Shown piece by piece: positions 5,075 to 47,075 of a DNA stretch of 64,000 nt. The notes below the pieces were generated by a model. The model was not told where the DNA came from. It did not search any database and saw only the letters and a list, made by a program, of their open reading frames with translations. The first letter of the stretch is position 1. Each line of letters begins with the position of its first letter. The position numbers and the translations under genes are program-made. Source of the stretch: Saprospiraceae bacterium (GTDB lineage Bacteria; Bacteroidota; Bacteroidia; Chitinophagales; Saprospiraceae); contig OZ244968.1 of NCBI GenBank assembly GCA_965222645.1, forward strand, positions 5,386,008-5,450,007. Reading direction: 5' to 3'.

Positions 5075-5160
5075 CACACGCTTCGCCGCTTCGCCCACTT
5101 AACTCACATAGAAGAGCTATTCAAACGTCTTAGAAAAAATGCTGTTTAAATATAATTAAC
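5075..5160 (+). repeat. Intergenic repeat, TTAACTCACA family, subtype 1
   Basis: The sequence ...GCTTCGCCCACTTAACTCACATAGAAGAGCTATTCAAACGTCTTAGAAAAAATGCTGTTTAAATATAATTAA matches the copy at 9484-9565. Confidence 0.7.
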
Positions 5161-6770: not shown

Positions 6771-6828
6771 CAATTTATAATTCGCCAGACAGCTCCGCCC
6801 ACTTAACTCACAGATATGAATTATTCCT
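6771..6828 (+). repeat. Intergenic repeat, TTAACTCACA family, subtype 2
   Basis: CAATTTATAATTCGCCAGACAGCTCCGCCCACTTAACTCACAGATATGAATTATTC matches 9732-9795 (TCAATTTATATAGAACGCCAGACGGCTCCGCCCTCTTAACTCACAGACATGAATTATTC). Confidence 0.7.
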
Positions 6829-7427
6829 ACCTCGAAATGAAAAGAACCACGTACAGCGGTGTGAGAGGCGCACCCCGGTCTATTTATTGGCCGGGGCCGT
6901 CTACTCGATTCTCTGCAGGCTTTCCTCTTCAAGAAAATTTGAACCAACTTGATAGTAGTATATCCCAAGCTTTATTAAGTAATAACCTTACAATAGCAAG
7001 AATGTGTTAGTAATGAACAAAGTTTGTAAATGAGTATTTTTCTCTATCTGGTTTGGACTGCTTTAACTCTTTCATTAAGATAGTCTTTAATGTCACTTGG
7101 TAAATCCGAAAAGTCTGTTGAAACTCGTACTTCGAAAAAATCTTTTTTATCATTTTTCATAATACATGATTTTGATGATTAAATAATCAGATTATTTCCA
7201 ATTAAATATGGTTATTCTTCTCGGAATTTAATTGCTTATGCTTGCAGAGCACGGATTAGCATAGCCACAGTAGCGGATGAATCCAGCTCTAAGTTAAGTG
7301 ATTTCTATTATCCGCTATTGTGTGCTATGCAATGTTGGCAAGCGTTCCATACATAATTTAATATGTTGGTATGTAGATATTCAATTTTATTGCCTTAAGA
7401 GGTCATATTCTCGGTACAATTCTTTGT

Positions 7428-9483: not shown

Positions 9484-9565
9484 CGCACAAAGCTCCGCTC
9501 ACTTAACTCACATAGGGGAGTTATTCAGACGTCTAAAAGAAATGATGCTTAAATATAATTAAATA
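9484..9565 (+). repeat. Intergenic repeat, TTAACTCACA family, subtype 1
   Basis: GCACAAAGCTCCGCTCACTTAACTCACATAGGGGAGTTATTCAGACGTCTAAAAGAAATGATGCTTAAATATAATTAAA matches 5075-5160. Confidence 0.7.
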
Positions 9566-9731: not shown

Positions 9732-9795
9732 CAATTTATATAGAACGCCAGACGGCTCCGCCCTCTTAACTCACAGACATGAATTATTCAAACGT
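9732..9795 (+). repeat. Intergenic repeat, TTAACTCACA family, subtype 2
   Basis: Matches 6771-6828 (see that entry). Confidence 0.7.
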
Positions 9796-9846
9796 TTTTT
9801 AATTTCGAAAAATCGAATGTAGTATTCGACAAAAGCCGAAGCCAAA

Positions 9847-10559: not shown

Positions 10560-11030
10560 TCGATAGCTGGGGACCCAACTTCGCTTAAGCTTTGGTGGGC
10601 AGGCGTGGCGAGGTGTGGCAGACAAGGGGACCCGCCTTCGCCCTTTTTAAGCTTCTGTTTTCCCATACGAGATAAGCAAGTGCAGCTGTGGACAGCGTGA
10701 GGGCTTTGGCGGGCAGGCGCGGACCCCTTGGAGTATATCTATCCGTTTTATTGGCTGGGGGATCAGATCCTGGATCCCTCAGGCCATGGGTCTATTAGTC
10801 AATGGGTCCCGCCTTCGCCCTTTCTAAGCTTCTGTTTTCGCATGCGAGATGAGCAAGTGCAGCTGTGGACAGGGTGAGGGCTTTGGCGGGCAGGCATGGA
10901 CCCATTGGAGATGCCTATTTATTTTATTGGCTGGGGACCATAGACCATTGGGTCATGGACCCATTGGAGATACCTATTCATTTTTATCGGCTGGGGGTCA
11001 ATAGACCATTGGGTCACGGACCATGGCAGA
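10560..11030. repeat. Direct repeats (~178-bp period, about 2.5 copies) upstream of the DUF2142-like gene
   Basis: GGACCCGCCTTCGCCCTTT(T/C)TAAGCTTCTGTTTTC...GCAAGTGCAGCTGTGGACAG.GTGAGGGCTTTGGCGGGCAGGC..GGACCC.TTGGAG...TTATTGGCTGGGG occurs starting near 10627 and near 10804. There is a further partial copy at 10958-11030. Confidence 0.7.
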
Positions 11031-13155: not shown

Positions 13156-13624
13156 CCCATATGTCGTACCTGACGGCACGATCATTAGGTACGTCGTAGG
13201 GAGTTACCTGCATGTCGTACCTACGGCACGAGCAGGGCCGGCGAATGTAAATTCGCCTTTGACTGCGTGTGGGTTTGAGATAGCCTCCACGTAGTGTTGT
13301 GCCGGTGAATGTAAATTCGCCTTTGACTGCCGATCTATGGTAGGAGTTACCTGCATAATGTACCTACGGCAGGATCATTAAGTCATCGTCTGGAGTTATA
13401 TGCATCTCGTACCTACGGCACGATCATTAAGTCAGCGTTTGGAGTTACCAACATGTCGTACCTACGGCACGAGCAGGGCCGGCGAATGTAAATTCGCAGA
13501 TGTCTCAATGCGGGTCTGTGATAGTCTTTTATGGTAGTGTTGTGCCGGTGAATGTAAATTCGCCTTTGACTCAATGCTGGGTCTGGAGTTACCGACGTTG
13601 GTGTCTGCCGTGACAGTTAAAGTC
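13156..13624. repeat. Cluster of REP-like hairpin repeats between convergent genes
   Basis: Two alternating motifs. ATGTCGTACCTACGGCACGA occurs about 5 times (near 13160, 13207, 13350, 13395, 13445). GCCGG(C/T)GAATGTAAATTCGCC occurs 4 times (near 13237, 13300, 13478, 13543) and contains a GGCGAAT/ATTCGCC 7-bp stem. Confidence 0.75.
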
Positions 13625-15556
13625 TTACTGGCTGATTGTAATCATGTCGAGAAAGAGTACACTATCGTCGATGGCTTCTAAGACAATGTCTACGACCTGT
13701 CCCTCTGCAAGATTGATCCGCACCGGATATTCGGAAAAGCGTGAATGCGATATTTTCCTCGGATCTAGCTCCTGATTAAGATGGATGGATTCACCACTGG
13801 AAATAGTGCAGTTTAGAGCTGGATCTTCCCGGATATTATTAGACTGCTTTCTAAGGCTAAATTTTATTTCATGAATCCCTGATGATAGTTTTGTGCTGCA
13901 CTTCACTGTCTTGGTGGTTCCTGTTCCCCCGGCATCTGAAATTTTGATGCTTTGCTTTATAGTAGAGAGCGAATCGTAGTTGGGGTAACCTCGGTAAAAG
14001 AGTTTATTTGACGGGAGGATGATGGTGCCATTGAGCCAGGATTTAATTCTTATTTTATTGGGAAGGTGTGCTCTATAACTAAAATTATAAGAGTCACTGG
14101 ATAGTTTGTATTTGCACATCTCACTATCGGCTAGCTTAAATGGAGCACCGTCTTTAATTAAGATTCTCCCGAATTGCCTAACCCTGGTTGGAAATGTGTC
14201 GAGCCACATATCCCTTATCAGAAAGATCTTATCATTTTCAAATACTGCTTCCGCTAATTTTATATTGCGGTAGACTGCATTGTCATGAGGGGTAGCAATT
14301 ACAAGGTCAGGGTTTACTGCTGAATTGACATATGAATTCCAGTAATCACCTATCAATCCGATTTTCCCGAGGCTTTCCAATTCCTGTACTGTGGTACGTA
14401 TTGCTTTTGCTACACCATTTCGGTAAAAATTTTCCAACGCACTGGATACGGACAAGAGTGAACAAACCAGGAGGGAGACCGCCATCCATTTCGGCAGACC
14501 TGGGTGGCTATCTAAATGTGCTAATAGCCATAATGCAGCAGAGATAAAAAGACAACTGAAATATCTTCTTCCCATTTCATTTAAATAAACCCAGTTTACC
14601 GTAAATAGTATTACCGCTGTAAGGATGAGCGTGACAAACAAAATACTCGTCAGGGTATTGTGCAAATGTGTTGTACCTTTTTTTCTTCTACCTGTTTTCA
14701 CGTAGAAGAAATAGGAGGCGAGTGTTGTTATTATTGCAATCCAGAATACACCCTGCACACTGCTTTCAGATCTAAACAACAAGATCCGTTTGACGGATGC
14801 CCAGATTATTTCCAATCCATTTCCTATTTCGGATAAAGTGCTTAGTCTAAACGAACTGTAGGAATTGCTAGGGATCCCCTGAAGTTTAGCAAATATTATA
14901 AAAGACCCAACAAGTATAATGGAGGAAATAATCCATAACTTATACTCCGTTCGATTTTTTATTCTTTTTAATATTTGAGGATTGCTGAATAATAGACCCA
15001 GAACAATTGCTGCCACATAGATTATTCCAAAGTCTGAAACCCAGATGAGTATTGCTGTTGCCAATGCGGTGCATGCCATCCAATAGTATTGGGAATTATT
15101 TCCTTGAACTTGTTTTACTTTCTTTAGGCAGTAAAGAATTATTCCAAAAAAACTGAATTGGATACCAAAGGGATACAAAAGAAATTCTACAAATTGCCAC
15201 GGAGGCAAAAACCAGATCAGATACAAGAATATGCGTAGGTATCGGTTCTTAATAAAAGAGGAGAATGAAAGTACCCCAAGGAGCAGGATGCCATAGTGTG
15301 TCAGTGAGGTTACCAAGATTAACGGAATACCTGAAAGCTTATTGACCATATATGCAACTATAGGAATGAGATTTCCTCCTCGGTCTTGCCCCCAACAGTA
15401 CAGATCTTGAGGTAATTGAAGATGATGGGCCATTAGAATACTCAATGCACTGTCGGAATTCAAAAGAGGGGAGTAGTAAAAGGAAAAGTGAGCAAACGAA
15501 ATTCCAAGGACCAGAATGAAAACGAAGACCTCTCCCGAATTTCTCTTGTGAGACAT
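13625..15556 (-). CDS. Polytopic membrane protein (GT-C/ArnT-like, putative) with C-terminal soluble beta-rich domain
   Basis: 643 aa. About 12 hydrophobic helices in the first ~380 aa, then a soluble C-terminal half. The architecture parallels the convergent gene 11272..13155. No catalytic motif was confidently recognised. Confidence 0.4.
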   Translation of the reverse strand: MSHKRNSGEVFVFILVLGISFAHFSFYYSPLLNSDSALSILMAHHLQLPQDLYCWGQDRGGNLIPIVAYMVNKLSGIPLILVTSLTHYGILLLGVLSFSSFIKNRYLRIFLYLIWFLPPWQFVEFLLYPFGIQFSFFGIILYCLKKVKQVQGNNSQYYWMACTALATAILIWVSDFGIIYVAAIVLGLLFSNPQILKRIKNRTEYKLWIISSIILVGSFIIFAKLQGIPSNSYSSFRLSTLSEIGNGLEIIWASVKRILLFRSESSVQGVFWIAIITTLASYFFYVKTGRRKKGTTHLHNTLTSILFVTLILTAVILFTVNWVYLNEMGRRYFSCLFISAALWLLAHLDSHPGLPKWMAVSLLVCSLLSVSSALENFYRNGVAKAIRTTVQELESLGKIGLIGDYWNSYVNSAVNPDLVIATPHDNAVYRNIKLAEAVFENDKIFLIRDMWLDTFPTRVRQFGRILIKDGAPFKLADSEMCKYKLSSDSYNFSYRAHLPNKIRIKSWLNGTIILPSNKLFYRGYPNYDSLSTIKQSIKISDAGGTGTTKTVKCSTKLSSGIHEIKFSLRKQSNNIREDPALNCTISSGESIHLNQELDPRKISHSRFSEYPVRINLAEGQVVDIVLEAIDDSVLFLDMITISQ

Positions 15557-17786
15557 ATTTAATTTATAGAATATTCATCTACACTGCAAATGTGAAATAT
15601 ATGCTCTGCAATGCCGGCTCATGCAATGATAGAAAAACATTTCTTCTTTCCGGATTAACATATGTAAATAAAATGGGGGTGATTCTTGATCGATTTCGCC
15701 AAGGGCGGGGCGAGGTATGGTGTACCTCGAAGTCAGAAGCTTGCGCGTGAAGTGGGTGAACTACTGCATCCTTGGTGAGCAACAATTATAATTACTTTTC
15801 TTTTTTGTGACTAAAAATGTCCTTTCCCACTTTTTGTCAGTCCCGACGATATCTGTCGGGATGGGTCATTCTTGAGCGATCCCGCCAAGGGCGGGGCGAG
15901 GTACTGTGTACCTCGAAGTGAAATGAACCACGTACAGTGGGTGGGTGAGCTCCTACATCCTCGGTGACCCACATCTTGGGTCTTCACTAGATTTTATAAG
16001 TGATTTCTTCCGCTTTTTTCTTGATAAAAAAGCTAGCAAAAAATCAAGACTGTGAATGATGGCCTAACATCCTGTAAGCTCTTGCTTACCCACGTGCAAT
16101 CAGAGCCGTTCGGCATATTCATACTGAGCCTACTCTTTTTACCGAGGACTATGCCTCACTACGCTGATTGCTTCTTTGCTTACCTTCAGAGCAACAGGCT
16201 GTTTGGCCACCATTCAAGGTCGATCAAAGGGATTGCCATATGGTATAGCTCGGGATCATTTCTTGCGTGCGTGACTGCTTTGAATGATAGCTTAGAATTC
16301 CTCTTCAACGAAATAGATTATTTTTGGAATGTCTAGAAAAGGTGATTTCAAAGTCCCCCAACAAGTTCTTACTGCTGGCCTTTGATCCGTGAGCCAGGCT
16401 CTGACTTCCTTAGTGGAGAAGTCTATTGCTTGTGATCAGATTTTGTCTGCATTTATGCTCCTTAGCTCTTTTCCGCTGGATAAAATCTAACGCTACAACC
16501 GAAGTGTGGGCCCCCACCTACGGATGCGAAGTCGGAGTCATCAAAACTATTTTAGGACTTTTATGCCAGCGCTCCCAAAGACCTTTGAAAAAGGTCTAAT
16601 CCCGGCCTTATTTTTTTTAGTGATAAAATGCCAAAAAACCGTTAAGAACTTTAAAGAGTTTGAACGAGTAGAATTTTCATCGAAAGATCAAACTTGAATA
16701 AAAGCAATCCAATATAGTACGTCAGGATTTATGTGAGTTTTTAAAGTTTAGGTTTTTTGGGATTTTATTGCGTTAGGAAAAAAATATAGCCGGCGATTTT
16801 GTCAAACTTTTGTCGCCAAAAGTTTGCCCTACCGGAGGTAGAATATTTTTATTGTATGTTCTTTCAAAATTCCGCTGGATAAAATCTAACGCTACAACCC
16901 AAGTGTGGGGCCCCACCTACGGATGCGAAGTCGGAATCCATAGGATTTTTTTCGAGTGCCTTTCACCCTTTTTGTCCTATTTTAACGGCAAAATATCTAA
17001 GGCGAGGTAGGCACGCTCCTGATGTCTGTAGGCGGACTCGTCGTGGGGTTGATGAGCTGTCTTATATTGAATGATGTTCACCCTATTAATTCTTGCTGGA
17101 TAAAATCTAACGCAACAACACAAGGTGTGGGGCACCACCTGCGGATGCGAAGTCGGGGTCAGGGAAGTGGGAAAGAAGGGAAGTAGGGATTCCCAAGCCC
17201 GGAGCGAATCGAAGATCAACCGAAGCGAGATCCCGATATCAACCGGAAGGAGATCGTCGGGTCGTTGGGAGTGAAGGGATTGGTTAGCCCGGAAATAATT
17301 ATTCATTCTTTTTTGTGACCAAAAAAAGAAACAAAAAAGTCTTTCTCTGTAGATCTTTTGCCTAATAGGCCAAACCCACCCGCTCGTGATCCCAGCCGTT
17401 CGCTTTTTAGATCATCACTTTGTTGCGCTTGATCGGAAGATGAGATGCCTACCTTCTTTTATGTCCCCATATGCTCACTTCGGCATCACTCCTCTACCTT
17501 GCACTCTTTGTCCTATTTTAACGGCAAAATATCTAAGGTGCTGTAGGCATGCTCCGCATACCTTGAGGAGGACTCGTCGTCGGGTTCTTGAGTTGTCTTA
17601 TAGTGGTTGTTATACATCCATTGACTTTTCTACTAGACTACGTAGGATTAATCATGGGGGATCATGTAAGTTTGGTAGTAGGGTAATTGGGCCACTGATA
17701 AAATCTAACGCCTCGATCCAGGTGAGAGACCAGAATCTATGGATGCGAATTCGAAGTCTACAAATTATTTTGGAATACAGTCTTAT
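15557..17786 (+). repeat. Gene-free mosaic repeat block A (modules M1, M9, M3, M4, M2, M7, M8, M5)
   Basis: Shares modules with blocks B and C. The M1 hairpin module CGCCAAGGGCGGGGCGAGGTAC...GTACCTCGAAGT is at ~15684 and ~15868. 16168-16860 is nearly identical to 20990-21680. M2 (TTTGTCCTATTTTAACGGCAAAATATCTAAGG...) is at 16971 and 17517. M3 (...CTACGGATGCGAAGTCGG) is at ~16473, 16872, 17094 and 17695. The only ORFs here are repeat-derived. Confidence 0.8.
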
Positions 17787-18956
17787 TTACCAGGAAGATA
17801 TTTCAATTCCGGGATAGAAAGCACCCCAGGAAAACCAGAAGCCCATAAACTGAGTTGGTAATTCCAGGGTAGCGCTATTTTCGTTGCCATTCAGTGGTTT
17901 TCCCAAAAGATCATATTTGATGCCATCGCTGTCCATTAATATTGCCGGAAATTCATTTTCCAATAACGAGAATTCTCGATCACCCCCATCAAAAGCCACG
18001 ATAAAATTTTTGGATTTACTACGCACTACAATCAGATTAACATCACCCAGCTGCTCCCGGATCATTTCCATTTTCTCCAATTCTTCACCGAAAGTATAGA
18101 CCCGATTTACCCGTTGACCCAGAACTCCAAGTACTCGCTGCTTTAAGTCCAACCGGCTGTCTTTCGTGGTGATTGGAAATATCAGCCGCTCCTGGTTGGT
18201 CCGGTAATCTCCATAGGGATAATCTCCATAAGGATTATCAAAACCGGTCGACCTGGTCATGATTGTTCCTTCCGGATATGCAGATCGAAATGTCTCAAAG
18301 GTCGTTTCTACCATGCTGTAGATTTTGGCCTTCGCACCTACGAGCTTGCCATTTACACAGTCCAGTCTTTGTTGGGACCAGATACTTTCCGTAGATCTGT
18401 CATAAGGCATCAAATTGGTATTGTACAACAATCCGGACACTCCAAACGTCGTTTCTTCGCCCTGCACGACTCGATTCCAGGCGATCCCGGTGCCAGTCAA
18501 TGGGCAGTATGTGACCGCGAATTTTTTGGTTGCAAGCTCATCGTTGACTATTTCATGATGATCTAAAATACCTATTGGATAAGCCCTCACCTGGTCCTCT
18601 GCTCGCATGACGAGAACAAGATCTTCGTCATCTGGAAACTCGGCATTGCTGGCAATCGTGAATTGGGGATTGTCGATGGATGGTATCCCATCCTTCCCCG
18701 GACCTCCATCAAATACCTGATCAATGGGTATCAACCAGCCATTAGACGTATTTACAGATCCTCCCGGTGAAGGTGTGACAGTCTTGGACTTTGAGCAAGA
18801 AATTATCAGGGGGACCACGATGATGATGAACCACCTCATTACCGGAGGAGCCACTTTGAAGCTAATTACATTTTTCCAGGACAGCATTATTAATTCGGAA
18901 AGGGCAAAAACTTGCTTTAAAAAATTAAAAACTCGATACAAAAAAGATCTATGCAA
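17787..18956 (-). CDS. DUF3179-domain lipoprotein
   Basis: Contains DGIPSIDNPQF and other DUF3179-like blocks. The likely true start is the internal MRWFIIIVVPLIISCS (ATG near 18839), which gives a lipoprotein signal. Confidence 0.6.
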   Translation of the reverse strand: MHRSFLYRVFNFLKQVFALSELIMLSWKNVISFKVAPPVMRWFIIIVVPLIISCSKSKTVTPSPGGSVNTSNGWLIPIDQVFDGGPGKDGIPSIDNPQFTIASNAEFPDDEDLVLVMRAEDQVRAYPIGILDHHEIVNDELATKKFAVTYCPLTGTGIAWNRVVQGEETTFGVSGLLYNTNLMPYDRSTESIWSQQRLDCVNGKLVGAKAKIYSMVETTFETFRSAYPEGTIMTRSTGFDNPYGDYPYGDYRTNQERLIFPITTKDSRLDLKQRVLGVLGQRVNRVYTFGEELEKMEMIREQLGDVNLIVVRSKSKNFIVAFDGGDREFSLLENEFPAILMDSDGIKYDLLGKPLNGNENSATLELPTQFMGFWFSWGAFYPGIEISSW

Positions 18957-19328: not shown

Positions 19329-20792
19329 CTAGGCATTGTAAGTGGTGGAAGCCGTACCACCGCCTCGACCAGTCCAGTCAGTATGAAAGAATTCGCCTTT
19401 CGGCTTATCTAACCGCTCGTATGTATGTGCTCCGAAATAGTCTCTTTGAGCCTGGAGCAGATTGGCAGGTAATCGCGCTGTGCGATATCCGTCGTAGTAT
19501 GTCAAGGCAGATGCAAATGCGGGGACGGGAATGCCCTGAGCTATAGATGTGCTAACGACATTCCTCCAGCTGGTCTGGGCATCTGACAGTTTTTCCTGAA
19601 AATAACTGTCCAAAAGCAGATTGTTAAGATTTCGATCTTTATCAAATGCGTCTTTGATATTTTTCAAAAAGACCGATCGAATAATGCATCCCCCTCTCCA
19701 CACTTGTGCAATTGCCCCATAATTTAGACTCCAGCCATATTCCTTTGCAGCTTCACGCATCAATACAAATCCCTGGGCGTAGGAAATTATTTTAGATGCC
19801 AAAAGGGCTTGACGTATATCCTCGACGAAGACTTTTTTATCTCCATTAAATACCGGACTAGGCCCATCTAAAATCTTGGATGCATTTAGGCGCTCTTCTT
19901 TTTGTGCTGATATGCACCGTGCAAACACCGCTTCTCCTATCATCGTAAGAGGTATACCCAGATCAAGAGCGGTTATCGCAGTCCACTTTCCCGTTCCCTT
20001 TTGCCCTGCCGTATCCAGGATTTTTTCGAGTAAGGGCTCTCCATTTTCCTTGTACCCCAGTATGTCACTTGTGATCTCGATGAGATAACTATTTAACTCT
20101 CCCTGATTCCATGCTGCAAAAACATGATGCATTTCCTCGGCTGACATTTTTAACAACACTTTCATGATATAATACGCTTCACAAATCAGCTGCATATCTC
20201 CATACTCAATCCCATTATGTACCATTTTTACAAAGTGGCCCGCACCATTTTCTCCAATCCAATCACAACAGGGCTCACCATTTACTTTGGCAGAAATTGC
20301 TTGCAAGATCGGTTTTACCATTGGCCATGCTTCTCTTGATCCACCCGGCATAATGGACGGACCAAGAAGTGCACCTTCTTCACCGCCAGATACCCCTGTA
20401 CCAATATAAAGCATGTCCTTGCTCTCCAGCAGTTGCGTCCTCCTGTTTGTATCGGGAAAATGAGTATTCCCACCATCGATTAGAATATCTCCTTTTTCGA
20501 GAAGTGGGCAGAGTTTTTCTATCATTTCATCCACTGCTGCTCCTGCTTTAATCATCATTATGATTTTTCGGGGACGTTCAATCGATTGGACAAATTCCTG
20601 GAGGTCATCCGAACCACGAAAGTTTTTATTCACACCTCGACCATTTATGAATTTTTGGACAATGCCTTCTTCAATGCCAGGCACTGTGCGGTTGTACACA
20701 GAGACAGTAAAACCTTTTGATTCCATATTTAAGGCCAGGTTTTCTCCCATTACAGCCAGGCCTATAACACCGATATCTGATTTATCTTTCAT
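19329..20792 (-). CDS. gnd: 6-phosphogluconate dehydrogenase, decarboxylating
   Basis: 487 aa. GVIGLAVMGENLALN NAD(P)-binding start. Conserved blocks IDGGN, GTGVSGGEEGA, GAGHFVKMVHNGIEYGDMQLI, KGTGKWT, RDYFGAHTYER. Confidence 0.95.
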   Translation of the reverse strand: MKDKSDIGVIGLAVMGENLALNMESKGFTVSVYNRTVPGIEEGIVQKFINGRGVNKNFRGSDDLQEFVQSIERPRKIIMMIKAGAAVDEMIEKLCPLLEKGDILIDGGNTHFPDTNRRTQLLESKDMLYIGTGVSGGEEGALLGPSIMPGGSREAWPMVKPILQAISAKVNGEPCCDWIGENGAGHFVKMVHNGIEYGDMQLICEAYYIMKVLLKMSAEEMHHVFAAWNQGELNSYLIEITSDILGYKENGEPLLEKILDTAGQKGTGKWTAITALDLGIPLTMIGEAVFARCISAQKEERLNASKILDGPSPVFNGDKKVFVEDIRQALLASKIISYAQGFVLMREAAKEYGWSLNYGAIAQVWRGGCIIRSVFLKNIKDAFDKDRNLNNLLLDSYFQEKLSDAQTSWRNVVSTSIAQGIPVPAFASALTYYDGYRTARLPANLLQAQRDYFGAHTYERLDKPKGEFFHTDWTGRGGGTASTTYNA

Positions 20793-23633
20793 TTTCTAAT
20801 ATTGAATTTTTCACTAGAAAGGCGATTGCCATATTTCTTCCGTTTTTTCACCACACAATGTATAAATTATATCCTCTTTTCCACTTTTTTGGAAACTAAA
20901 TGTTATTCTTTATTTTTTGTGATCAAAAAAGAAGTGAAAAAGTATTGCAATAAGGATTTTCGCTTATTTCTTGATCATTCTTAAGTGATCTTCTTTGCTT
21001 ACCTTCAGAGCAACAGGCTGTATGGCCACCATTCAAGGTCGATCAAAGGGATTGCCAGGTGGTATAGCTCGGGATCATTTCTTGCGTGTATGACTGCTTT
21101 GAATGATAGCTTAAAATTCCTCTTCAACGAAATAGGTTATTTTTGGAATGTTTAGGAAGGTGGTTTCAGAGTCCCCCAGGAAGTTCCACTACTGGCCTTT
21201 GATCCCTGAGCCAGGCTCTAACTTTCATAGTGGTGAAGTCTATCACTTGTGATCTGATTTTGTCTGTATTCATGCTCCTCAACTCTTTTCTGCTGGGTAA
21301 AATCTCACGCTGCGACCCAAGTGTGGGACCCCACCTACGGATGCAAAGTCGGTGGCATCAAAACTATTTTAGGACTTTTATGCGAGCGCTCTCAAAGACC
21401 TTTGAAAAAGGTCTAATCCCGGCCTTATTTTTTTTAGTGATAAAATGCCAAAAAACTGTTAAGAACTTTAAAGTGTTTGAACGATTAGAACTTTCATCGA
21501 AAATCTAACGTGAATAAAAGCAATCCGATATAGTACATCAGGATTTATGTGAGTTTTTAAAGTTTAGGTTTTTTGGGCTTTTATTGCGTTAGGAAAAAAA
21601 TATAGCCGGTGGTTTTATCAAACTTTTGCCACCAAAAGTTTGCCCTGCCGGAGGCAAGAATGCATTTAGTGGTTTGTCACATTATTCGCCAAAAGACACC
21701 GTAGCCTCTTTATCCAGATCGTAGCCACCAACAACTTGGATGTCAGGAATGGCAGCCTCAAACAGGCTAAGAAGTTGAATTCCTACTTACTTTTAGGCCC
21801 CAAGGCTCACTTCGGCATCACTCTTTTACCTCACCCTTTTTGTCCTATTTTAACGGCAAAATATCTAAGGTGCTGTAGGCATGCTCCGCATACCTGTCGG
21901 ATGACTCTCCACTTTTTGACAATATCATTCATTCTTTTTTGTGACCAAAAAAGAACCAAAAAAGGTCTTTCGCTGAAGATCTTTTGCCTACTAGGCCAAA
22001 CCCACCCGCTCGTGATCCCAGCCGTTCGGTTTTTCGATCATCACTTTGTTGTGCTTGACCGGAAGTTGATATGCCTGTCTTCTTTTACGTTCCCAAATGC
22101 TCACTTCGGCATCACTCCTTTACCTTGCACTCTTTGTCCTATTTTAACGGCAAAATATCTAAGGCGATGTAGGCATGCTCCGCATGCCTGGTTGGTCGCT
22201 CGCTGTAGGGTTTATATGCAGTTTAATATGGACTGTTGTTCATCTCATTACTTCTTATAGACAAATCAGACGGAATACATTTGTGATCTCCGCCTAAGGA
22301 TGCGAAGTCGAGGTCATCAAAACTATTTTAGGACTTTTATGCGAGCGCTCCCAAAGACCTTTGTAAAAGGTCTAATCCCGGCCTTATTTTTTTTAGTGAT
22401 AAAATGCCAAAAAACCGTTAAGAACTTTAAAGTGTTTGAACGAGTAGAACTTTCATTGAAAATCTAACTTGAATAAAAGCAATAGGATATAGTACGTCAA
22501 GATTTAAGTGAGTTTTTAAAGTTTAGGTTTTTTGGGCTTTTATTGCGTTAGGAAAAAAATGTAGCCGGTGGTTTTATCAAACTTTTGCCAACAAAAGTTT
22601 GCCCTGCCGGAGGCAAGAATGCATTTAGCGGTTTGTGACATTATTCGCCAGAAGATACCATAGCCTCTGTATCCAGATCGTAGCCACCAACAACTTGGAT
22701 GTCAGGAATGGCAGCCTCAAACAGGCTAAGAAGTTGAATTCCTACTTACTTTTAGGCCCCAAGGCTCACTTCGGCATCACTCCTTTACCTTGCCCTCTTT
22801 GTCCTACCTTAACGGCAAAATATCTAAGGCGATGTAGGCATGCTCCGCATGCCTGGTTGGTCGCTCGCTGTAGGGTTTATATGCAGTTTAATATGGACTG
22901 TTGTTCATCTCATTACTTCTTATAGACAAATCAGACGGAATACATTTGTGATCTCCGCCTAAGGATGCGAAGTCGAGGTCATCAAAACTATTTTAGGACT
23001 TTTATGCGAGCGCTCCCAAAGACCTTTGAAAAAGGTCTAATCCCGGCCTTATTTTTTTTAGTGATAAAATGCCAAAAAACCGTTAAGAACTTTAAAGTGT
23101 TTGAACGAGTAGAACTTTCACCGAAAATCTAACTTTGAGTAAAAGCAATCCGATATAGTACGTCAAGATTTATGTGAGTTTTTAAAGTTTAGGTTTTTTG
23201 GGCTTTTATTGCGTTAGGAAAAAAATATAGCCGGTGGTTTTATCAAACTTTTGCCAACAAAAGTTTGCCCTGCCGGAGGCAAGAATGCATTTAGCGGTTT
23301 GTGACATTATTCGCCAGAAGACACCGTAGCCTCTGTATCCAGATCGTATCCACCAACAACTTCGATGTCAGGAATGGCAGCCTCTAACAGGCTAAGAAGT
23401 TGAATTCCTACTTACTTTTAAGCCTCAAGGCTCACTTCGGGATCACTCTTTTACCCCACCCTTTTTGGCTATTTTAACGGCAAAACATCAAAGGTGCTGT
23501 AGGCATGCTCCGCATACCTTTAGGATGACTCGTAATTGGGTTGATGAGTAGGTTTTGTTAATATTTTGGCTTATAATCACTTGATATTAATGCAATGTCT
23601 TTTGTTGATCAAGTCCATTTGATGAAATTCTCT
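20793..23633 (+). repeat. Gene-free mosaic repeat block B, including about 3 tandem ~665-bp units (M3-M4-M2)
   Basis: The M2 anchor TTTGTCCTA(T/C)(T/C)TTAACGG is at 21838, 22133, 22798 and 23463 (variant), giving spacings of 295, 665 and 665. GGATGCGAAGTCG is at ~21339, 22301 and 22964. An extra M5+M2 insert lies at 21900-22260. The left part, 20990-21680, duplicates 16168-16860. Confidence 0.85.
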
Positions 23634-24908
23634 CTACACAGTAAATCTGCCTTTATAAGCCCATAGGCCCAGTGCGGGATTTGAGATAAAATAAATCTCT
23701 TCTCCGGAGGGCAATGTATTAAACCCGTCTAGCAGGGTTCCGAGATCATACTTTTCGAGCATTTTATTGAGATCGGCATAGCGATAGTGTACGCTTTCGA
23801 TTTCCTCCCTGGTGAGATTTCCAGGGCAGTATGTGATTGAAAATCGACCCTCGCTGCTGGAATGCATAATATGTGCAGCTGCGCTTAAATTATTGCGTAG
23901 ATCTTGATTTTCTTCCAAAGCTTTTAATGTGGCTGGAGTACCGCAATAGCCATATTTTCTAATAAGTCTGTCTATCTCGCTGTCCTCACCAAATTCGGAT
24001 AGTCCAGGTGCCAGTACGATAAGCTCCCCATTATCGGCCATCGCCAATCTCGTGCGATAAATACTTTTATTACCCAACCAGGTAGTTTTGAATTCGGCAG
24101 GATCTAAATAAACAATAACTTTTTCCAATGGCTGGTCAAACAAAGTAAAATTGACCTTTAGAGATAATTCGGCTGCCAAATGAAAAACTTCAACCGTGTC
24201 TCCGATGAACAATCCCCGGGTTACCAATTTACCATCCTCACTTAGAGCAACGACCGTCAATATATAAACGACTGGTAATTCTTTAATAAAATGATCAGAT
24301 GCATAATTCAATAAATCCCTAACAGGATTTTTTGCCCGTCCCAACACGTTTTCAATACCAAATGCGGCACCAACAAAGTGGCTCTGATTTATTCCCGCTG
24401 AGCCACCGGTGCCGACAAAGAGATTTTTATTGTAATTGGCCATACCCATAACTTCGTGGGGAACAACCTGGCCAACAGATAGGATGAGATCATGACCTCC
24501 AGAATAAATTAAATTATTTAATTGCGCAGGCCAATCCGACTCGACCAGGCCTCCTGTCATCTCTTTGACCTGTTCTCCCGGGATGGTGCCTACTGTTACG
24601 ACATCGTTTCTCCAATCATGAACACGAAATAACTCATGGGGGATGCCGGGATACATTTTATCTATCTCTGTGGCCGTCATAGGTTTGTGTGTACCCAGTG
24701 CCGGCATGATGTCCGTCAGAGCGCGGTCATAATGTTCGTGAATAAAAGTCGTAATCAATCCTGCGCCAGAGTGTAGTCTGGTAATATCAGGAGGTACGGC
24801 GATCACCTTTTTTCGAGCGCCCAACTTTTCCAAAGTGGAAAAAACAGCATTTTTGATATCCTCTCGCGATAAATCTGTTGTGCTACTTCCTGTTTGATAA
24901 TAAATCAT
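23634..24908 (-). CDS. LarA-like (lactate racemase N-terminal domain / DUF2088) protein
   Basis: 424 aa. The N-terminal region ...KKVIAVPPDITRLHSGAG... and overall length resemble DUF2088/LarA-family proteins found next to sugar-acid kinases. Motif memory only. Confidence 0.5.
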   Translation of the reverse strand: MIYYQTGSSTTDLSREDIKNAVFSTLEKLGARKKVIAVPPDITRLHSGAGLITTFIHEHYDRALTDIMPALGTHKPMTATEIDKMYPGIPHELFRVHDWRNDVVTVGTIPGEQVKEMTGGLVESDWPAQLNNLIYSGGHDLILSVGQVVPHEVMGMANYNKNLFVGTGGSAGINQSHFVGAAFGIENVLGRAKNPVRDLLNYASDHFIKELPVVYILTVVALSEDGKLVTRGLFIGDTVEVFHLAAELSLKVNFTLFDQPLEKVIVYLDPAEFKTTWLGNKSIYRTRLAMADNGELIVLAPGLSEFGEDSEIDRLIRKYGYCGTPATLKALEENQDLRNNLSAAAHIMHSSSEGRFSITYCPGNLTREEIESVHYRYADLNKMLEKYDLGTLLDGFNTLPSGEEIYFISNPALGLWAYKGRFTV

Positions 24909-26019: not shown

Positions 26020-26452
26020 TCTATTTTTTAGATTTTATGTGACTGATAATCGCGATTCTTCATAAGGGGATTCTGAAAAAAATTGAAGTGGTAAATAAAT
26101 AAAATATCTTAGTAAGATGACCCAAATCCTTATACGATTTTTCCGTCCGGGGACTTGAAGGGCAAATCCGTGCTTGCCTTTTACATTCGACTAGTGAGGT
26201 TACTCCGGAAATTGCCAATTTCACAAAATGAGTCAATTTTGGATGAGATTTTCACTTTTTTGAGATCGGCTGATGCCTGTGTATCAGGCGATTGAAGAAA
26301 ATGAAAATATTCCTGCCTGGCATGCCTCCAGGCAGACAGGGCCAAAAGAGCCATTTTTGATTTGGCAACCTTTTCGGATTTCTATAGACTTTCCAAACTC
26401 AATTATCACTTTTTTCAAATCGCTCCGCGGGTCAGTTGAAAAAAAAGTATGC

Positions 26453-27454
26453 TCATGCTGCATAGTCAATCTTGTAAGTTCTTTGGTTTTTTACACAAGA
26501 GAAAACCCTACCTACGATCTTGTTACGTATAGCGTTTAAGACCAACATTTTGTTTTTACCTTGTCTGACCTTCCGGATATAGTACGCCTTCATCTCTGGA
26601 TTGTTTCTCACCGAGCTTACAGCGCACATATGTAAGATTGTCTTGAGTGTTTTGTTTGCCATGGGATGGACTTTGGTTCTTCCCCTAAGACTCGATCCTG
26701 AGCTGAATTCGAAGGGAGCAATACCTGCAAAAGATGCCAATTGCTTGGCATTGCTAAAACGTGTAAATCCCCTGGTGTAGACCAGAAGATATGTCGCCGC
26801 AACAAATCCAACGGATTTTACCGAGGTGGCAAGTTCATACTTGACCTTAAGGTCTTCGTTTGATCTGATGGCCTTGAGAATCTTCACCTCTAGAGCTTTT
26901 AGTTCCTCTTTCAAAGCTTCTAAACTCTTGCTACAAGCTTGATGAAGGGCTTCCGATTCACTGACTAACCCAACACTTTTGAGCTCCTTAATCGGCTTGC
27001 TTAAAGACAGTAGTGAGGTCTGTAGTCTTTCTCTAAGTGACAGATAATCAGATATTTGAAGCAGTGCTTTGTCCATCTGTTCATAGGACTTTGCCTTGTC
27101 CTGGTTGCGAAAGGCATAGCTCAGTATGCGTTCAGCATCAATCTCGTCACTTTTTCCCCTTTGGATCCCTCCTGACCACTTTATTTGAACTGGAGTTTCA
27201 ACCCAGACAAATGCTTCCTTTGATTGAAGATAGGTAACCAATAGCCGATGATAAATACCGGTGTTTTCCAAACAGATCAAAGTACTGTTCATTTTCAGCC
27301 CCTGCTTCTTCATCCAATTATACAGTTTATCGAATCCACCTAAATTGTTGGCAAAGCAGGCTTTTCTCACGCTTCGATCAGCTGTATTCTCGCCCAAGGC
27401 TAGATCTATTTTCCTTTTCGATACATCGATGCCCATAATTGAGTCCCATTTCAT
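26453..27454 (-). CDS. IS110-family transposase/recombinase (DEDD RuvC-like N-terminus + Tnp C-terminal domain)
   Basis: MGIDVSKRKIDLAL start and ...LENTGIYHRLL..., with C-terminal SVGFVAATYLL...FSNAKQLASFAGIAPFEFSSGSS..G.TKVHPMANK..K..LHM.A blocks typical of IS110/IS1111. Confidence 0.9.
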   Translation of the reverse strand: MKWDSIMGIDVSKRKIDLALGENTADRSVRKACFANNLGGFDKLYNWMKKQGLKMNSTLICLENTGIYHRLLVTYLQSKEAFVWVETPVQIKWSGGIQRGKSDEIDAERILSYAFRNQDKAKSYEQMDKALLQISDYLSLRERLQTSLLSLSKPIKELKSVGLVSESEALHQACSKSLEALKEELKALEVKILKAIRSNEDLKVKYELATSVKSVGFVAATYLLVYTRGFTRFSNAKQLASFAGIAPFEFSSGSSLRGRTKVHPMANKTLKTILHMCAVSSVRNNPEMKAYYIRKVRQGKNKMLVLNAIRNKIVGRVFSCVKNQRTYKIDYAA

Positions 27455-27485
27455 TTTAATACCTTTAATTGTTTAGAAATTAGCC

Positions 27486-27648
27486 AAATGTCTAAGCATA
27501 CATCTGCGGTCTAATTCCCTGATAATAGGCCTTGGTGCCTCAATTTCTATCTGGACTCTGGATGTAAGATTCACTGAAGGACTAAATCCGAAAATAGGTC
27601 CTTAACCTTTGAGTAAGCTCTAGGTCCCTTCAGTGAAGCTTAGACATT
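27486..27648 (-). ncRNA. Candidate IS110 bridge/seek-type guide RNA (structured leader upstream of the recombinase)
   Basis: Nested inverted repeats: AATGTCTAAGC (27487-27497) pairs with GCTTAGACATT (27637-27647); TTCACTGAAGG (27570-27580) pairs with CCTTCAGTGAA (27626-27636); TACATC (~27499) pairs with GATGTA (~27561). The position is 5' of the recombinase, as in the IS110 subgroup. Confidence 0.35.
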
Positions 27649-27704
27649 CGACGATCGCAAGATCACAACTTTTTTGCTGATGCAAGTCTAAGGGAGTAGG
27701 CTCG

Positions 27705-28529
27705 CTAGTCCAGATCTACGGATCGATATGCTGCAATGAGGGCTGACTCTCCTTCGAGGCCGTCGATAAAATTACCGTGTTCCATACCCAAAATGCCACG
27801 ATATCCCTTATTGTGGATATGTTTAAAGATGTTTTGGTAATTGATCTCGCCCGTGGTGGGTTCGTTTCTTCCGGGATTATCACCGATTTGAAAATAGCCA
27901 ATCTCATCCCAAGCATTATCCATATTGGGGATCAGGTTGCCCTCTTCAATCTGTTGATGATAGATATCAAATAGAATCTTACAGGAAGGGCTATCCACTG
28001 CCCGGCAAATAAAATAACTTTGAGGGATGGTAGTCAGAAAGACTCCGGGGTGATTATAGAAATTGAGGGGCTCCAGCACCATGACAAGGCCATGTGGTTC
28101 GAGAAGTGCAGCGGCTCTCTTCAAGGTTTCGATGACGTGTGCTGTCTGGTATCCAATTTTTACCTTCAGATCCAGCCGGCCAGGTATAGTGGTCATCCAA
28201 GTTGCATTTACGCGCTTTGCCACATCTATGGAGGACTTGATATCATCGAGAAATGCTTGCCTCAAGGATTGATCTGCAGTCGTAATTGTGGGTTGATTAC
28301 TTCTCACTCTTCCTCCTACAAAGACACCCATTCGCATTCCCAGCTGGGCCAAAGTTTGTCCTATTTTGTCCTGCAGCGATTTTTCCTTCCGTTTGAGATT
28401 ATTGTCTTCAAATGCAGTAAAGCCCTGGTCCGCCATAAACTTGATTTGGTCGATGGGGTCTGCACCGGCATGATGTCTAAACATCCCTAGATGGGGAGCA
28501 AAGGCCATTTTAAACTTTTGAATGATCAT
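27705..28529 (-). CDS. Xylose-isomerase-like TIM-barrel protein (hydroxypyruvate isomerase family)
   Basis: 274 aa. Shows the N-terminal FAPHLGMF..., ...LEPLN..., ...FDIYHQQ...GN and ...GYRGILGMEH pattern typical of Hyi-like sugar-phosphate isomerases/epimerases. Confidence 0.7.
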   Translation of the reverse strand: MIIQKFKMAFAPHLGMFRHHAGADPIDQIKFMADQGFTAFEDNNLKRKEKSLQDKIGQTLAQLGMRMGVFVGGRVRSNQPTITTADQSLRQAFLDDIKSSIDVAKRVNATWMTTIPGRLDLKVKIGYQTAHVIETLKRAAALLEPHGLVMVLEPLNFYNHPGVFLTTIPQSYFICRAVDSPSCKILFDIYHQQIEEGNLIPNMDNAWDEIGYFQIGDNPGRNEPTTGEINYQNIFKHIHNKGYRGILGMEHGNFIDGLEGESALIAAYRSVDLD

Positions 28530-30195: not shown

Positions 30196-31903
30196 ATAGA
30201 CCGTACTTTCGCTACTAAATCCATCGCCAGGTGCCACCTCATTTTCTTATTTCACAACCAATGATTTAATCCTTTTTTCACTTTTTTGGCACCCGCCTTT
30301 CAGGCCACGCCGGCAGGGCAAAAAGTGGAGCATTCTTGAGCGATCCCGCCAAGGGCGGGGCGAGGTACTGTGTACCTCGAAGTGAAATGAACGTCGTACA
30401 ATGAGTGAGCTCCTGCATCCTTGGTGAGCAACAATTTTAATTATTTTTCTTTTTTGTGACCAAAAAAGAAACAAAAAAGTCTTTCGCTTTCGTGCCTCGT
30501 CCGATAATTATCTATACAGCTGAAGCCGATCTTTTTCGCCATCTCTTCATCATTAAAAGCCTTATGTAGCATGGCTATACGCGGTTTTACTTCTTCGATA
30601 TGACAAAAAATATCTGGCTTGATCTGTACATTTAATTACCAGACGAAACACTGGATCTTTTGCCTAATAGGCCAAACCCACCCCGCTCGTGATCCCAGCC
30701 GTTCGCTTTTTAGGTCATCACTTTGTTGCGCTTGATCGGAAGATGAGATGCCTACCTTCTTTTACGTCCCCAAATGCTCACTTCGGCATCACTCCTTTAC
30801 CTTGCAGTCTTTGTCCTATTTTAACGGCAAAATATCTAAGGCGAGGTAGGCACGCTCCGCATGCCTGTAGGGGGACTCGTCGTGGGGTTCGGGAGTTTCT
30901 TATATTGAATGATGTTCACCCTATTAATTCTTGCTGGAACAAATCTAGGGCTACAACACAAGGTGTGGGGCACCACCTGCGGATGCGAAGTCGGGGTCAG
31001 GGAAGTGGGAAAGAAAGGAGGTAGGGATTCCCAAGCCCGGAGCGAATCGAAGATCACCGAAGCGAGATACCGATATCCACCGGAAGGAGATCGTCGGGTC
31101 GTTGGGAGTGAAGGGATTGGTTAGCCCGGAAATAATTATTCATTCTTTTTTGTGACCAAAAAAGAACCAAAAAAGTCTTTCTCTGTAGTGCCTCGTCCGA
31201 TAATTATCTATACAGGTGAAGCCGATCTTTTTCACCATCTCTTCATCAGTAAAAGCCTTGTGTAGCGCCACTATACTCGGTTTTACTTCTTCGACATGAC
31301 AAAAAATATCTGGCTTGATCTGTACATCTAATTACCAGACGAAACACTGGATCTTTTGCCTAATAGGCCAAAGCCATCCCACTCGAGATCTCAGCCGTTC
31401 GCTTTTTGCCGGTCATTTTATTATTTGTGATCAAAAGGTGACATTTATACCTTTTTTTTACCGATCCTCCTGCACACTTCGGCATCGCTCCTCTACCTTG
31501 CACTCTTTGTCCTATTTTAACTGCAAAATATCTAAGGCGATGTAGGCACGCTCCGCATGCCTGTTGGATCACTCGAGTTGTAAAGTGTTATATTGTGTTA
31601 TTTGAATTTTATCAACCCCATCCAATCCTCTTGTAAACACAATTGTGAGGACTCACCTCCGGACGCGTAGTTGGGGTTTACAAATTATTTTGTGACTTTT
31701 AGGGTGAGTCGAACCGAAAGACCTTTGCTAAAAGGTCTCATTCCGGTATTTCAAATTTTAGTTAAGAATGGTCATATGCATGCTGATGACGGTATCTTTA
31801 TTATTGGGCTCCGGGGCCCGGATTTGATAGTAGATCACGTTTTTTATCAAAAAATTGACTAAAAACACACGTTAAAAATCTATTTTGGAAATTCTAGGAA
31901 AAA
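30196..31903 (+). repeat. Gene-free mosaic repeat block C (M1, M5, M6, M2, M7, M3, M8; ~697-bp internal duplication)
   Basis: M1 is at 30332-30480. The M2 anchor is at 30809 and 31506 (spacing 697). M6 (GTGCCTCGTCCGATAATTATCTATACAG...ACCAGACGAAACACTG) is at 30488-30655 and 31188-31355. M7+M3+M8 at 30877-31145 is near-identical to 17033-17310. Confidence 0.85.
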
Positions 31904-33562: not shown

Positions 33563-33839
33563 CGAATGACGAATGACGAATGACGAATGACGAGTTACGA
33601 ATGATGAATGACGAATTACGAGTTACGAATGACGAATTACGAATTACGAATTGCGAATTGCGAATTACGAATTACGAATGACGAATTGCGAATTACGAAT
33701 TACGAATTGCGAATGACGAGTGACGAATTGCGAATGACGAATTGCGAATGACGAATTACGAATGACGAGTGACGAGTTACGAATGATGAATGACGAATTA
33801 CGAGTTACGAATGACGAATTACGAATTACGAATTACGTG
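33560..33839. repeat. Heptanucleotide microsatellite, about 40 copies of T(G/T)(A/G)CGA(A/G)
   Basis: Begins at the sulfatase TGA stop (TGACGAA TGACGAA TGACGAA TGACGAA TGACGAG TTACGAA ...) and ends ...TTACGAA TTACGTG. An 8-unit sub-pattern (TGACGAG TTACGAA TGATGAA TGACGAA TTACGAG TTACGAA TGACGAA TTACGAA) occurs near both ends. Confidence 0.95.
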
Positions 33840-46275: not shown

Positions 46276-46344
46276 GTAAGCGTCTAGTGATGAGCGTATT
46301 GTCTGCCTGGATATCATTGTTAATCTTTGTGGAAAAGTGCAAAG

Positions 46345-46638
46345 ATGGCCAGACAGAAAAAAGAAGATGTATTCCCATTAATAAAAGGTGTGTTGGAGGG
46401 GCAGATAAGCAAGGAAGACTTTTGTGAATTGACCAATCTGAAGCTATCGAGCTATCAGTATTGGTTGAGGAGATATCAGAATGAAGTGATGAGTAACGGC
46501 TCTTTTGTGCGAGTAAAGACAAATAAAGTGAGGGATCTGCCTTGCAGCGTTGAGATCAGCATAAATCAAGATATAACGATACGTTTTTCACAACTGGTGC
46601 CCCCAGATTATTTACTTAAGCTTATCGAGCAGAAATGA
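46345..46638 (+). CDS. tnpA: IS66 accessory protein TnpA (orf1)
   Basis: Small ORF (ATG 46345; the track starts at TTG 46327) whose TGA overlaps the tnpB ATG (ATGA at 46635-46638). Confidence 0.7.
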   Translation: MARQKKEDVFPLIKGVLEGQISKEDFCELTNLKLSSYQYWLRRYQNEVMSNGSFVRVKTNKVRDLPCSVEISINQDITIRFSQLVPPDYLLKLIEQK

Positions 46639-47000: not shown

Positions 47001-47075
47001 AAATAAATCGAATAAATAGGAAATATTTTTTGTAAATATTATAAAATAATTGCATGTATTTTTGTAAATTAAAGT

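Follow-up and report, generated by a model that had tools for sequence, protein, structure and literature searches.

Gene-free blocks of a Saprospiraceae genome are nests of hairpin-forming repeats and contain a member of an apparently undescribed structured family common to Bacteroidota and Fusobacteriota

Two minus-strand genes of a Saprospiraceae bacterium are separated by 2.2 kb of DNA (15557-17786, block A) for which a prediction made from the sequence had reported recognizable modules and no credible gene, and the question that this locus raises is what kind of DNA fills such a gap. Coordinates given here are those of the window, i.e. the whole 64-kb stretch that was analysed, and features of the blocks lie on its plus strand unless otherwise indicated. 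Block A is a gene-free, head-to-tail nest of non-coding hairpin-forming repeats, neither a gene nor a single element, and the same modules make up block B (20793-23633) and block C (30196-31903). Positions 16008-16228 are a full member of HPT, a family that we define by three parts: an A/T head resembling a pseudoknot, a long hairpin of variable sequence and the tail AGGTC. The explanation that we favour, with a probability of roughly 0.55, is the accumulation between genes of non-autonomous repeats that fold as single strands, of which the blocks would be nests.

At least eight types of module were distinguished in the array: M1, the HPT element, M3, T-S, M2, a purine-rich module, the P head and Q. 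Those common to blocks A, B and C are 78-97% identical in self-BLASTN. The three blocks sum to 6779 bp, in agreement with the ca. 6.8 kb of the original prediction, and the uniform orientation of module copies that it had described was found as well, every BLASTN match between blocks being plus/plus; the 298 non-self hits of the entire window are likewise plus/plus without exception. The co-orientation of three blocks is by itself weak evidence, with a chance of 1 in 4, and at the level of the HPT family orientation is mixed, because T-S bodies match the HPT covariance model (see below) weakly on the minus strand. The same prediction had treated the modules as independent bricks, a view that was abandoned, since they are mostly arms or ends of longer hairpin units.

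The blocks are genuine and not an artefact of assembly, because contigs that start in the unique genes on either side end within the first or the last module, at 15828 and 17534 in block A and at 21019 and 23486 in block B. Contigs from independent runs of the same species reproduce the block edges with 0 differences (15000-15828, 17534-18500, 20300-21019 and 23486-24100). A collapsed or expanded repeat in the long-read assembly would be in line with the fact that short-read assemblies break at the blocks, the interiors of which are not spanned by short-read contigs, but all four edges of blocks A and B were reproduced exactly and the independent runs contain every module at elevated depth, so that this explanation is extremely improbable. 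The number of copies of a 665-bp unit of block B, about three, is that given by the long-read assembly.

The abundance of the modules was estimated by aligning to block A the Logan contigs of three runs of the same species (X1, X2 and X3). In X3 the unique flanks have depths of 25.2 and 25.7 and the modules sum to 143-1487, which corresponds to ca. 6-60 copies per genome (6.2 Mb; at least 90% identity) on the assumption that the runs, whose kind is listed as "?", are of DNA, as they were treated because the flank depths of X3 are uniform; ratios in X1 and X2 are similar or higher. Taken together, the short-read contigs put each module at about 10-60 copies. Joints to other genomic contexts recur at the same positions, leading to 16011 and from 16225, 21044, 21352 and 15868, and these context joints lie 1-3 nt after the motif A(A/G)GTC(G/A). 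In the blocks, A[AG]GTC[AGT] occurs 25 times on the plus strand and 8 times on the minus strand, compared to 9.3 +/- 3.1 in shuffled sequences. M1, the HPT unit, M3 and the T hairpin all end in this junction motif, most units consisting of a hairpin of 20-200 nt followed by A(A/G)GTC. Some modules have the defined ends that a known mobile element would have (16011 and 16225 for HPT, inverted termini for the N element of block C) and behave like small non-autonomous elements; no catalogued insertion sequence (IS), miniature inverted-repeat transposable element (MITE) or prophage corresponds to them.

The blocks represent DNA that has been added. The genes encoding PfkB, Lar_N and 6PGD are contiguous in three relatives (L011, L012 and L013), which have a spacer of 45-88 bp separating Lar_N from 6PGD. 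The order of the three genes is unchanged in the window, where, however, 2841 bp, i.e. block B, part Lar_N from 6PGD, so that block B splits a conserved PfkB-LarN-6PGD cluster, and the comparison of syntenic loci that had been suggested identifies it as an insertion. A covariance-model search of the loci of the three relatives detected no HPT element.

The original prediction was upheld as to the lack of a credible gene. The open reading frames (ORFs) inside the blocks have no Pfam match, even a threshold of E up to 10 rendering only noise, the longest of them, of 174 aa, has no homologue among 5.8 billion proteins, and near-identical module copies differ by frameshifts. No Rfam match reached the gathering threshold in the window, a search at E up to 10 of the blocks and of an HPT copy gave chance hits only, and ten HPT loci gave no Rfam match on the elements. 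No tRNA and no phage match was found in the blocks, whose sole plasmid match is 44 nt long (16013-16056). Scans of viral contigs rendered 0 matches with one pattern and five chance-level matches of 18-20 nt with the other; genome contigs scanned for the M2 core rendered no more than four matches, due to chance and from unrelated taxa, in a collection that either does not contain the source species or leaves these repeats unassembled, and a metagenome scan with the T-module core gave no match. The blocks might be conceived as a decayed prophage or IS, an integron cassette array or a set of pseudogenes, given that the core of the N element and 21666-21780 read like protein fragments on the minus strand and that co-oriented arrays of hairpin sites recall attC arrays. 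This is very unlikely: to the null results with Pfam, protein, phage and viral sequences can be added that direct reading of M3 and HPT finds no attC cores (RYYYAAC/GTTRRRY), that the window has no integrase, and that a high genome-wide copy number together with discrete ends is unlike local decay.

Several more specific assignments were discarded. The protein-fragment readings have no Pfam support; integron attC sites, or clusters of attC sites lacking an integrase (CALIN), do not agree with the ATCTAAC of M3, which has no complementary GTTAGAT, or with the GAC/GTC base of HPT, and the window has no integrase; and a CRISPR array does not agree with repeat units of 60-700 bp in irregular order. 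Readings as tRNA-like or known RNAs were dropped after the scans of the window. A promoter in M2 (TTGTCC-16-TATCTA) was rejected, since M2 forms a hairpin with the start of Q, as its 3' arm, and is also the partner of M3, and a sigma-70 scan was not above background (48 sites vs. 34 +/- 6). Small ORFs resembling type I toxins after M2 were also rejected, since near-identical copies differ by frameshift.

The HPT element of block A has repeat boundaries at 16011 and 16225 and is 220 nt long. Its helix S1 is formed by 16012-16019 with 16026-16033 around the loop CTTGAT (16020-16025), ATCAAG is found at 16043-16048, the arms of the long hairpin are 16053-16069 and 16203-16219, and the tail AGGTCG is at 16217-16222; its DNA fold has z=-4.38. 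The 44-nt match mentioned above (16013-16056) was located in a plasmid of Aureibacter, between cas5d and cas7d, and provided the search pattern CTTGATAAAAAAGN{9,12}ATCAAGACTG, of which the window contains one exact match (16020-16052) where none is expected by chance. In the consensus, the head reads xyzCTTTTTT-CTTGAT-AAAAAAGx'y'z', CAAAAA, ATCAAG (the complement of the loop) and ACTG, the pattern ending in ATCAAGACTG. The hairpin, of 115-250 nt and variable sequence, starts directly after GACTG and closes directly before A[AGT]GTC, and the tail is A[AGT]GTC[GA]. The head pattern matches at least 120 metagenome contigs, many of which end at the element.

A covariance model (R1) built from HPT elements matches 16008-16228 over its full length with 71.4 bits (E=4e-14) and four P heads of the window over the head only, with 20-27 bits (E from 3e-4 to 0.012). 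The copy of the Aureibacter plasmid (L010) scores 124.5 bits (E=7.5e-26), and two copies of Ilyobacter polytropus (L134), which belongs to the Fusobacteriota, score 87.9 bits (E=9.8e-18) and 40.2 bits (E=3.8e-07). HPT is present on plasmids of Cytophagales, and HPT heads were detected by BLAST on replicons of Persicobacter and Chondrinema. On the Ilyobacter replicon pILYOP01, BLAST detected HPT at 8 places, so that the family crosses phylum boundaries. No description of it was met in a search of the literature, whether by sequence string or by terms for repeats. HPT is apparently an undescribed structured family common to Bacteroidota and Fusobacteriota. Among the plasmid copies, that of Aureibacter tunicatorum pAT6 (L010 2996-3166) is a full element in the 243-bp gap between cas5d and cas7d of a type I-D CRISPR-Cas operon, where it looks like an insertion within the operon, and the two copies scored on pILYOP01 (L134 1498-1669, plus strand, and 1745-1929, minus strand) are 75 nt apart in opposite orientation.

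The structure of the family is strongly supported by covariation. In 29 elements, 90.4% of the cells are paired vs. 76.6% in shuffled sets and 109 cells carry double changes vs. 40, values that none of 500 shuffles reached in either case, and slid controls were paired at 45-57%; at the base of the hairpin, 9 of 9 pairs change on both sides. When the 10 nt after GACTG were compared with those before the tail in 87 non-redundant elements, complementarity of at least 9/10 was observed in 49%, and in 0.7% when arms were swapped. RNAalifold on a MAFFT alignment recovered S1 only, and the long hairpin was tested with a named structure and this arm-swap control. Paired positions also change together between groups of elements: a copy of Ilyobacter has GGC/GCC in place of GAC/GTC, and the P heads of the window have GTGACC/GGTC in place of CTTGAT/ATCAAG. 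Little or no variation is seen, on the other hand, in the A6/T6/A6 tracts and in motifs such as AAACTC...CTCAAACAG, and the 3 bp adjacent to the tracts covary.

As for the context of the family, HPT elements are intergenic, with random orientation relative to the flanking ORFs (7, 12, 10 and 10 cases for the four arrangements), and the 115 ORFs next to them are spread over 101 Pfam families, among which no transposase recurs. Where a contig carries more than one element, orientation is mostly shared, as in 10 of 12 adjacent pairs; on one contig (L127) the tail comes immediately after the head. Such a profile corresponds to dispersed non-autonomous, selfish insertions and not to cis-regulators of particular genes.

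The same data can also be read in favour of structured non-coding RNA genes, of which the blocks would be tandem arrays. Strong covariation, unpaired motifs conserved across phyla, invariant tracts beside covarying pairs and the change of the pseudoknot partner together with the loop, described above, are all expected of RNA, and the T modules carry on the plus strand a terminator-like hairpin with T8, found four times. The strand that would be folded was addressed by counting the isolated mismatches in the long hairpins of 35 cluster representatives. Read on the strand of the model, there are 40 A.C vs. 17 G.T (p=0.003) and 52 pyrimidine-pyrimidine vs. 17 G.A mismatches; on the complementary strand they become RNA-like (G.U 40 vs. 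A.C 17; G.A 52 vs. C.U 17), G.U and G.A being non-canonical pairs that folded single strands tolerate. Judging from the sequence, the head on that complementary strand would be an H-type pseudoknot whose U6/U6/A6 tracts are compatible with U.A-U triples. In the form CUUGAU-UUUUUUG-xyzCUUUUUU-AUCAAG-AAAAAAGx'y'z' it could be a fold that protects a 3' end or binds a ligand or protein, and U.A-U triples could arise between its U6 loop and the invariant U6/A6 stem. Triple-helix pseudoknots are found in telomerase RNA, in the SAM-II riboswitch and in the element for nuclear expression (ENE) of PAN and MALAT1 and of transposon RNAs. The putative HPT fold resembles them in its U-tract/U-tract/A-tract, in its H-type topology and in having invariant 6-nt tracts beside covarying pairs, and differs in that the same constraints could act on single-stranded DNA (ssDNA). 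RNA genes are an unlikely explanation of the blocks, since a promoter was not found, the elements are placed and oriented at random with respect to genes, RNA genes do not typically occur as tens of near-identical copies with shuffled modules, and a specific ssDNA intermediate would produce the strand asymmetry as well. In addition, a related element (L037) has in four metatranscriptome assemblies a depth of 0-15x over body and head vs. ca. 50x for the adjacent gene, which, contig depth being a weak measure, argues weakly against an abundant stable RNA. Just upstream of the head of that element, about 70 nt (L037 4056-4127) have 2-3x the RNA contig depth of the neighbouring gene and continue in the metatranscriptomes into at least four different downstream sequences, and they are therefore a separate transcribed repeat.

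A role in the host for which the arrays are kept, as bidirectional terminators or insulators, binding sites of nucleoid proteins or hot spots of recombination, was also contemplated. The HPT hairpin lies between an upstream A-tract and a downstream T-rich sequence (consensus AAGGTCgtttt), the layout of a bidirectional terminator, in four runs the L037 element shows a fall in RNA contig depth at its head, and Neisseria intergenic mosaic element (NIME) arrays have been proposed to promote recombination (PMC1797815). Nevertheless, HPT is not enriched between convergent genes (12 convergent, 10 divergent and 17 tandem contexts, n=39), the cluster that contains block B is compact in relatives, close relatives have no units at the same site, and 2-3 kb of stacked units far exceed what a terminator needs. 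We consider such a role distinctly improbable.

Accumulation of non-autonomous repeats that fold as single strands is thus the explanation retained for the blocks, and it could proceed as follows. Units would be copied in trans in a single-stranded, folded state, via an intermediate that is either ssDNA handled by an enzyme similar to HUH/RAYT or IS110 recombinases or an RNA, and would tend to land beside existing copies. Tandem duplication, as in the 665-bp unit of block B (ca. 3x), and recombination between shared modules would then produce the mosaic, and effects on neighbouring genes would be a by-product. The mechanism of spread is in this respect an inference, in which RNA may be involved. 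Several observations weigh against this explanation. No partner transposase or recombinase was identified, the 64 kb containing neither a RAYT nor a Y1 gene; no target-site duplications were seen; and no pair of empty and filled sites was found for any single unit, for which reason transposition is only inferred. The copy numbers depend on the runs being of DNA, and P-Q-M2 as a whole folds no better than shuffled sequences (z=-0.69). The loop motifs AAACTC...CTCAAACAG and CTTAACG are conserved across phyla, which is unusual for purely selfish DNA and would fit a functional RNA or a protein-binding site, and the strand-asymmetric A.C and G.T mismatches imply that a specific folded strand is under selection, which could be RNA or ssDNA.

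A bolder proposal, which we put forward tentatively and hold to be improbable in its entirety, is that HPT represents a new class of structured element of Bacteroidota and Fusobacteriota acting as a single strand. Its functional strand would be the complement, with a U.A-U triple-helix pseudoknot as the bacterial counterpart of an ENE-type protector of the 3' end, it would be copied via that strand as RNA or ssDNA, and the blocks would be NIME-like landing pads in which these elements and sequences derived from them collect.

The order of modules in block A is as follows. The first ca. 120 nt (15557-15675) are unique sequence. M1 is present in two copies, a (15676-15817) and b (15862-15967), with the hairpins that had been predicted: CGCC-AAG-GGCG at 15697-15707 and 15883-15893, and CGAGGTAC-TGT-GTACCTCG at 15897-15915, with a variant at 15711-15729. 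In copy a the latter is followed by AAGTCA at 15730, with Logan joints at 15732, and in copy b a core of 82 nt (15869-15950) is replaced at other genomic copies by AAAACTGC (joints from 15868 to 15950/15951). The HPT element is followed by a low-copy spacer (16226-16470; ca. 1.4-3x depth) shared only with block B (21045-21287). M3 occurs four times, as predicted (matches at 16471, 16870, 17090 and 17688), and further full or partial copies are found in blocks B and C. Its first copy (16471-16539) consists of GATAAAATCTAACGC, a small variable hairpin, CCTACGGATGCG and the tail AAGTCGG; the second and third are 16870-16938 and 17088-17161, and the fourth (17688-17760) is the most diverged and ends 26 nt before the stop of the DUF3179 gene. 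Between the first two lies T-S (16540-16860), with the hairpin GACCTTTGAAAAAGGTC, a terminator-like hairpin (16591-16609) followed by T8, and a palindrome of ca. 200 nt (16598-16798) with arms at 16598-16640 and 16751-16798; T-S is among the modules with the highest copy number (ca. 27-44x), and the fold of 16460-16960, which includes it, has z=-4.8. The predicted duplication of ca. 690 bp, which covers part of these modules, does exist (16171-16844 vs. 20990-21661), at 91.3% identity and thus not almost exactly as had been stated, and its 3' 330 bp recur at 22290-22620 and 22955-23286.

M2 is also present twice in block A, as described, with a spacing of 536 bp instead of the 546 bp reported, and eight times in the window. 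Copy 1 (16963-17066) has an A/T hairpin TATTTT-AACGGC-AAAATA, TCTAAGG and a GTAG-tagged hairpin GTAGGCAYGCTCCGCATGCC, and its 3' part is complementary to M3, CGCATGCCTGTAGG of M2 pairing with the CCTACGGATGCG that precedes AAGTCGG in M3. The purine-rich module (17162-17295; M8 of the original prediction) is 94-96% identical to 30998-31135, and the wider segment 17060-17337 matches 30898-31174 at the same identity, in accordance with the similarity that had been noted. It is followed by the P head (17296-17348), a variant HPT head with TTCTTTTTT-GTGACC-AAAAAAAGAA, CAAAAAA and GTC, of which 17303-17348 gives a head-only match to R1 with E=0.007. Q and M2 copy 2 occupy 17352-17602 and have complementary arms, the start of Q, TAGATCTTTTGCC (17350-17362), being complementary to GGCAAAATATCTA of M2 (17523-17535); the fold of 17290-17775 is no better than that of shuffled sequences (z=-0.97). 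Block C is composed of M1, two P-(N insert)-Q-M2-M3 units and a diverged T module. The two copies of the N insert (30489-30653 and 31186-31349) are of ca. 170 nt, with imperfect inverted termini of 20 nt, and represent a clean indel relative to blocks A and B, with no duplication at the indel. In the relative L012 (21030-21300, minus strand), whose 6PGD is ca. 79% identical in amino acids, a core of N of ca. 60 nt is 79% conserved, and the termini differ in sequence yet stay complementary (GCTAGTGCAG...CTGCACTAGC). N could be a small structured element in its own right.

The blocks are large gaps separating confidently identified genes. Block A lies between the start of a 643-aa ORF (13625-15556, minus strand) and the end of the DUF3179 gene (17787-18956, minus strand), block B between 6PGD (19329-20792, minus strand) and Lar_N (23634-24908, minus strand), and block C between two plus-strand genes, one GT2-like and the other a sulfatase. 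The contents of the window point to a host among the Bacteroidota, since it encodes sorting domains of the type IX secretion system, PSCyt/PSD1/DUF1501 proteins and sulfatases; the nearest relatives of the 6PGD protein, which is encoded on a contig of 6.23 Mb, are only ca. 80% identical, and one of them is labelled Saprospiraceae. The genome is repeat-rich, and further repeat families, both dispersed and in tandem, are found in the window together with an IS66 and an IS110.

Among known systems, the NIME arrays of Neisseria, in which dRS3 repeats flank RS elements (PMC1797815), provide the closest architecture and a better fit than the bacterial interspersed mosaic elements (BIMEs) of the original prediction, known from E. 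coli, with BIMEs, repetitive extragenic palindromes (REPs) and REPINs coming next. Like NIMEs, the blocks are kilobase-scale intergenic arrays of many repeat families of 50-200 bp with a short recurring junction motif, have no coding capacity and a variable composition, and are found in a repeat-rich genome with an IS110-type recombinase that targets repeats, as for dRS3 in Neisseria (PMC1797815). They differ in that the junction is a one-sided A(A/G)GTC after a hairpin and not a 20-bp inverted repeat, ATTCCCN8GGGAAT, which is absent from the blocks and has in the window a single match with one mismatch (57388), at chance level. In addition, the units are longer and strongly hairpinned, the host is a member of the Bacteroidota, and the IS110 of the window sits in a different repeat family. 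With BIMEs, REPs and REPINs they have in common that high-copy extragenic palindromic units are combined in mosaics (PMC3733652, PMC3116915). REPs are imperfect palindromes of 20-40 bp whose foot has a conserved tetranucleotide, GTAG or CGTC. The M2 hairpin (GTAGGCATGC-TCC-GCATGCC) carries such a GTAG tag at its foot (GTAGGCATGC...GCATGCCTGTAG), and part of it recurs inverted in M3 (CCTACGGATGCG), which recalls a REP doublet; this pattern is not that of the other modules. Of the likeness to BIMEs that had been proposed, the intergenic, non-coding and mosaic character, the hairpin modules and the co-oriented copies stand. On the other hand, the units are 5-10x longer, the blocks far larger, no inverted module copies alternate as REPs do, all hits being plus/plus, no RAYT is encoded in the window, and the head and tail of HPT are conserved across phyla, unlike REP sequences, which are lineage-specific. 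The blocks are a variant of this mosaic kind of repeat and not members of the NIME or BIME/REP/REPIN families, because they have no dRS3 and no alternating REPs and the window has no RAYT. They also resemble modular MITE-like repeats (pneumococcal BOX, the Correia elements of Neisseria and cyanobacterial MITEs) in being small, non-autonomous, structured, intergenic and modular, in the inverted termini of N and in the long palindrome of T-S, and differ from these in that the ends of HPT are not inverted repeats of each other, no target-site duplication is seen and no cognate transposase is known.

Other repeats of the window deserve mention. An IS110-family element (ca. 26379-27673; ca. 3-4 copies) lies at one fixed position inside another repeat (26190-26378 and 27696-27720) of ca. 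190 nt and ca. 50-100 copies per genome as estimated from contig depth, whose uninterrupted copies read CCTTTTCGGAGTAGGCTCACTAG. Every IS110 copy carries the same left flank, and this genome therefore has an IS110-type recombinase that targets repeats in a site-specific manner, which bears on how the modules might spread. A 176-nt non-coding tandem repeat, with a higher-order period of ca. 350 nt and 78-83% matches, is present in about 28 copies at 49244-52521 and 53489-55119; the arrays flank a helix-turn-helix gene (52808-53359), adjoin the IS66 (46327-48611) and are not traversed by any ORF. The heptamer GAATTAC is repeated 40 times in tandem at 33557-33837, from the stop of a sulfatase gene (31904-33562). 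A 60-nt motif (GCTCCGCCCACTTAACTCACA...) occurs four times on the plus strand in other intergenic regions (5082-5141, 6786-6845, 9486-9545 and 9749-9808), and at 6828-6863 one copy shares 36 nt with M1. Intergenic repeats in tandem or nearly so, with units of ca. 60-170 nt and 84-88% identity, are present at 10620-11022 and 13161-13571, the intergenic regions of this genome being generally long and repetitive.

Mosaic repeat arrays of kilobase scale have been described in detail mainly in Neisseria and were stated to be absent elsewhere (PMC1797815), and a comparable architecture is now found in a Bacteroidota genome. The arrays have enlarged its intergenic DNA and split a conserved gene cluster, and, by breaking short-read assemblies at every copy, they affect the quality of metagenome-assembled genomes in such lineages. 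Moreover, HPT is a structured family that crosses phyla, with strong covariation and no Rfam entry, which makes it a candidate for work on the function of RNA or ssDNA and on mobility, with cultured hosts in Aureibacter, Persicobacter, Chondrinema and Ilyobacter.

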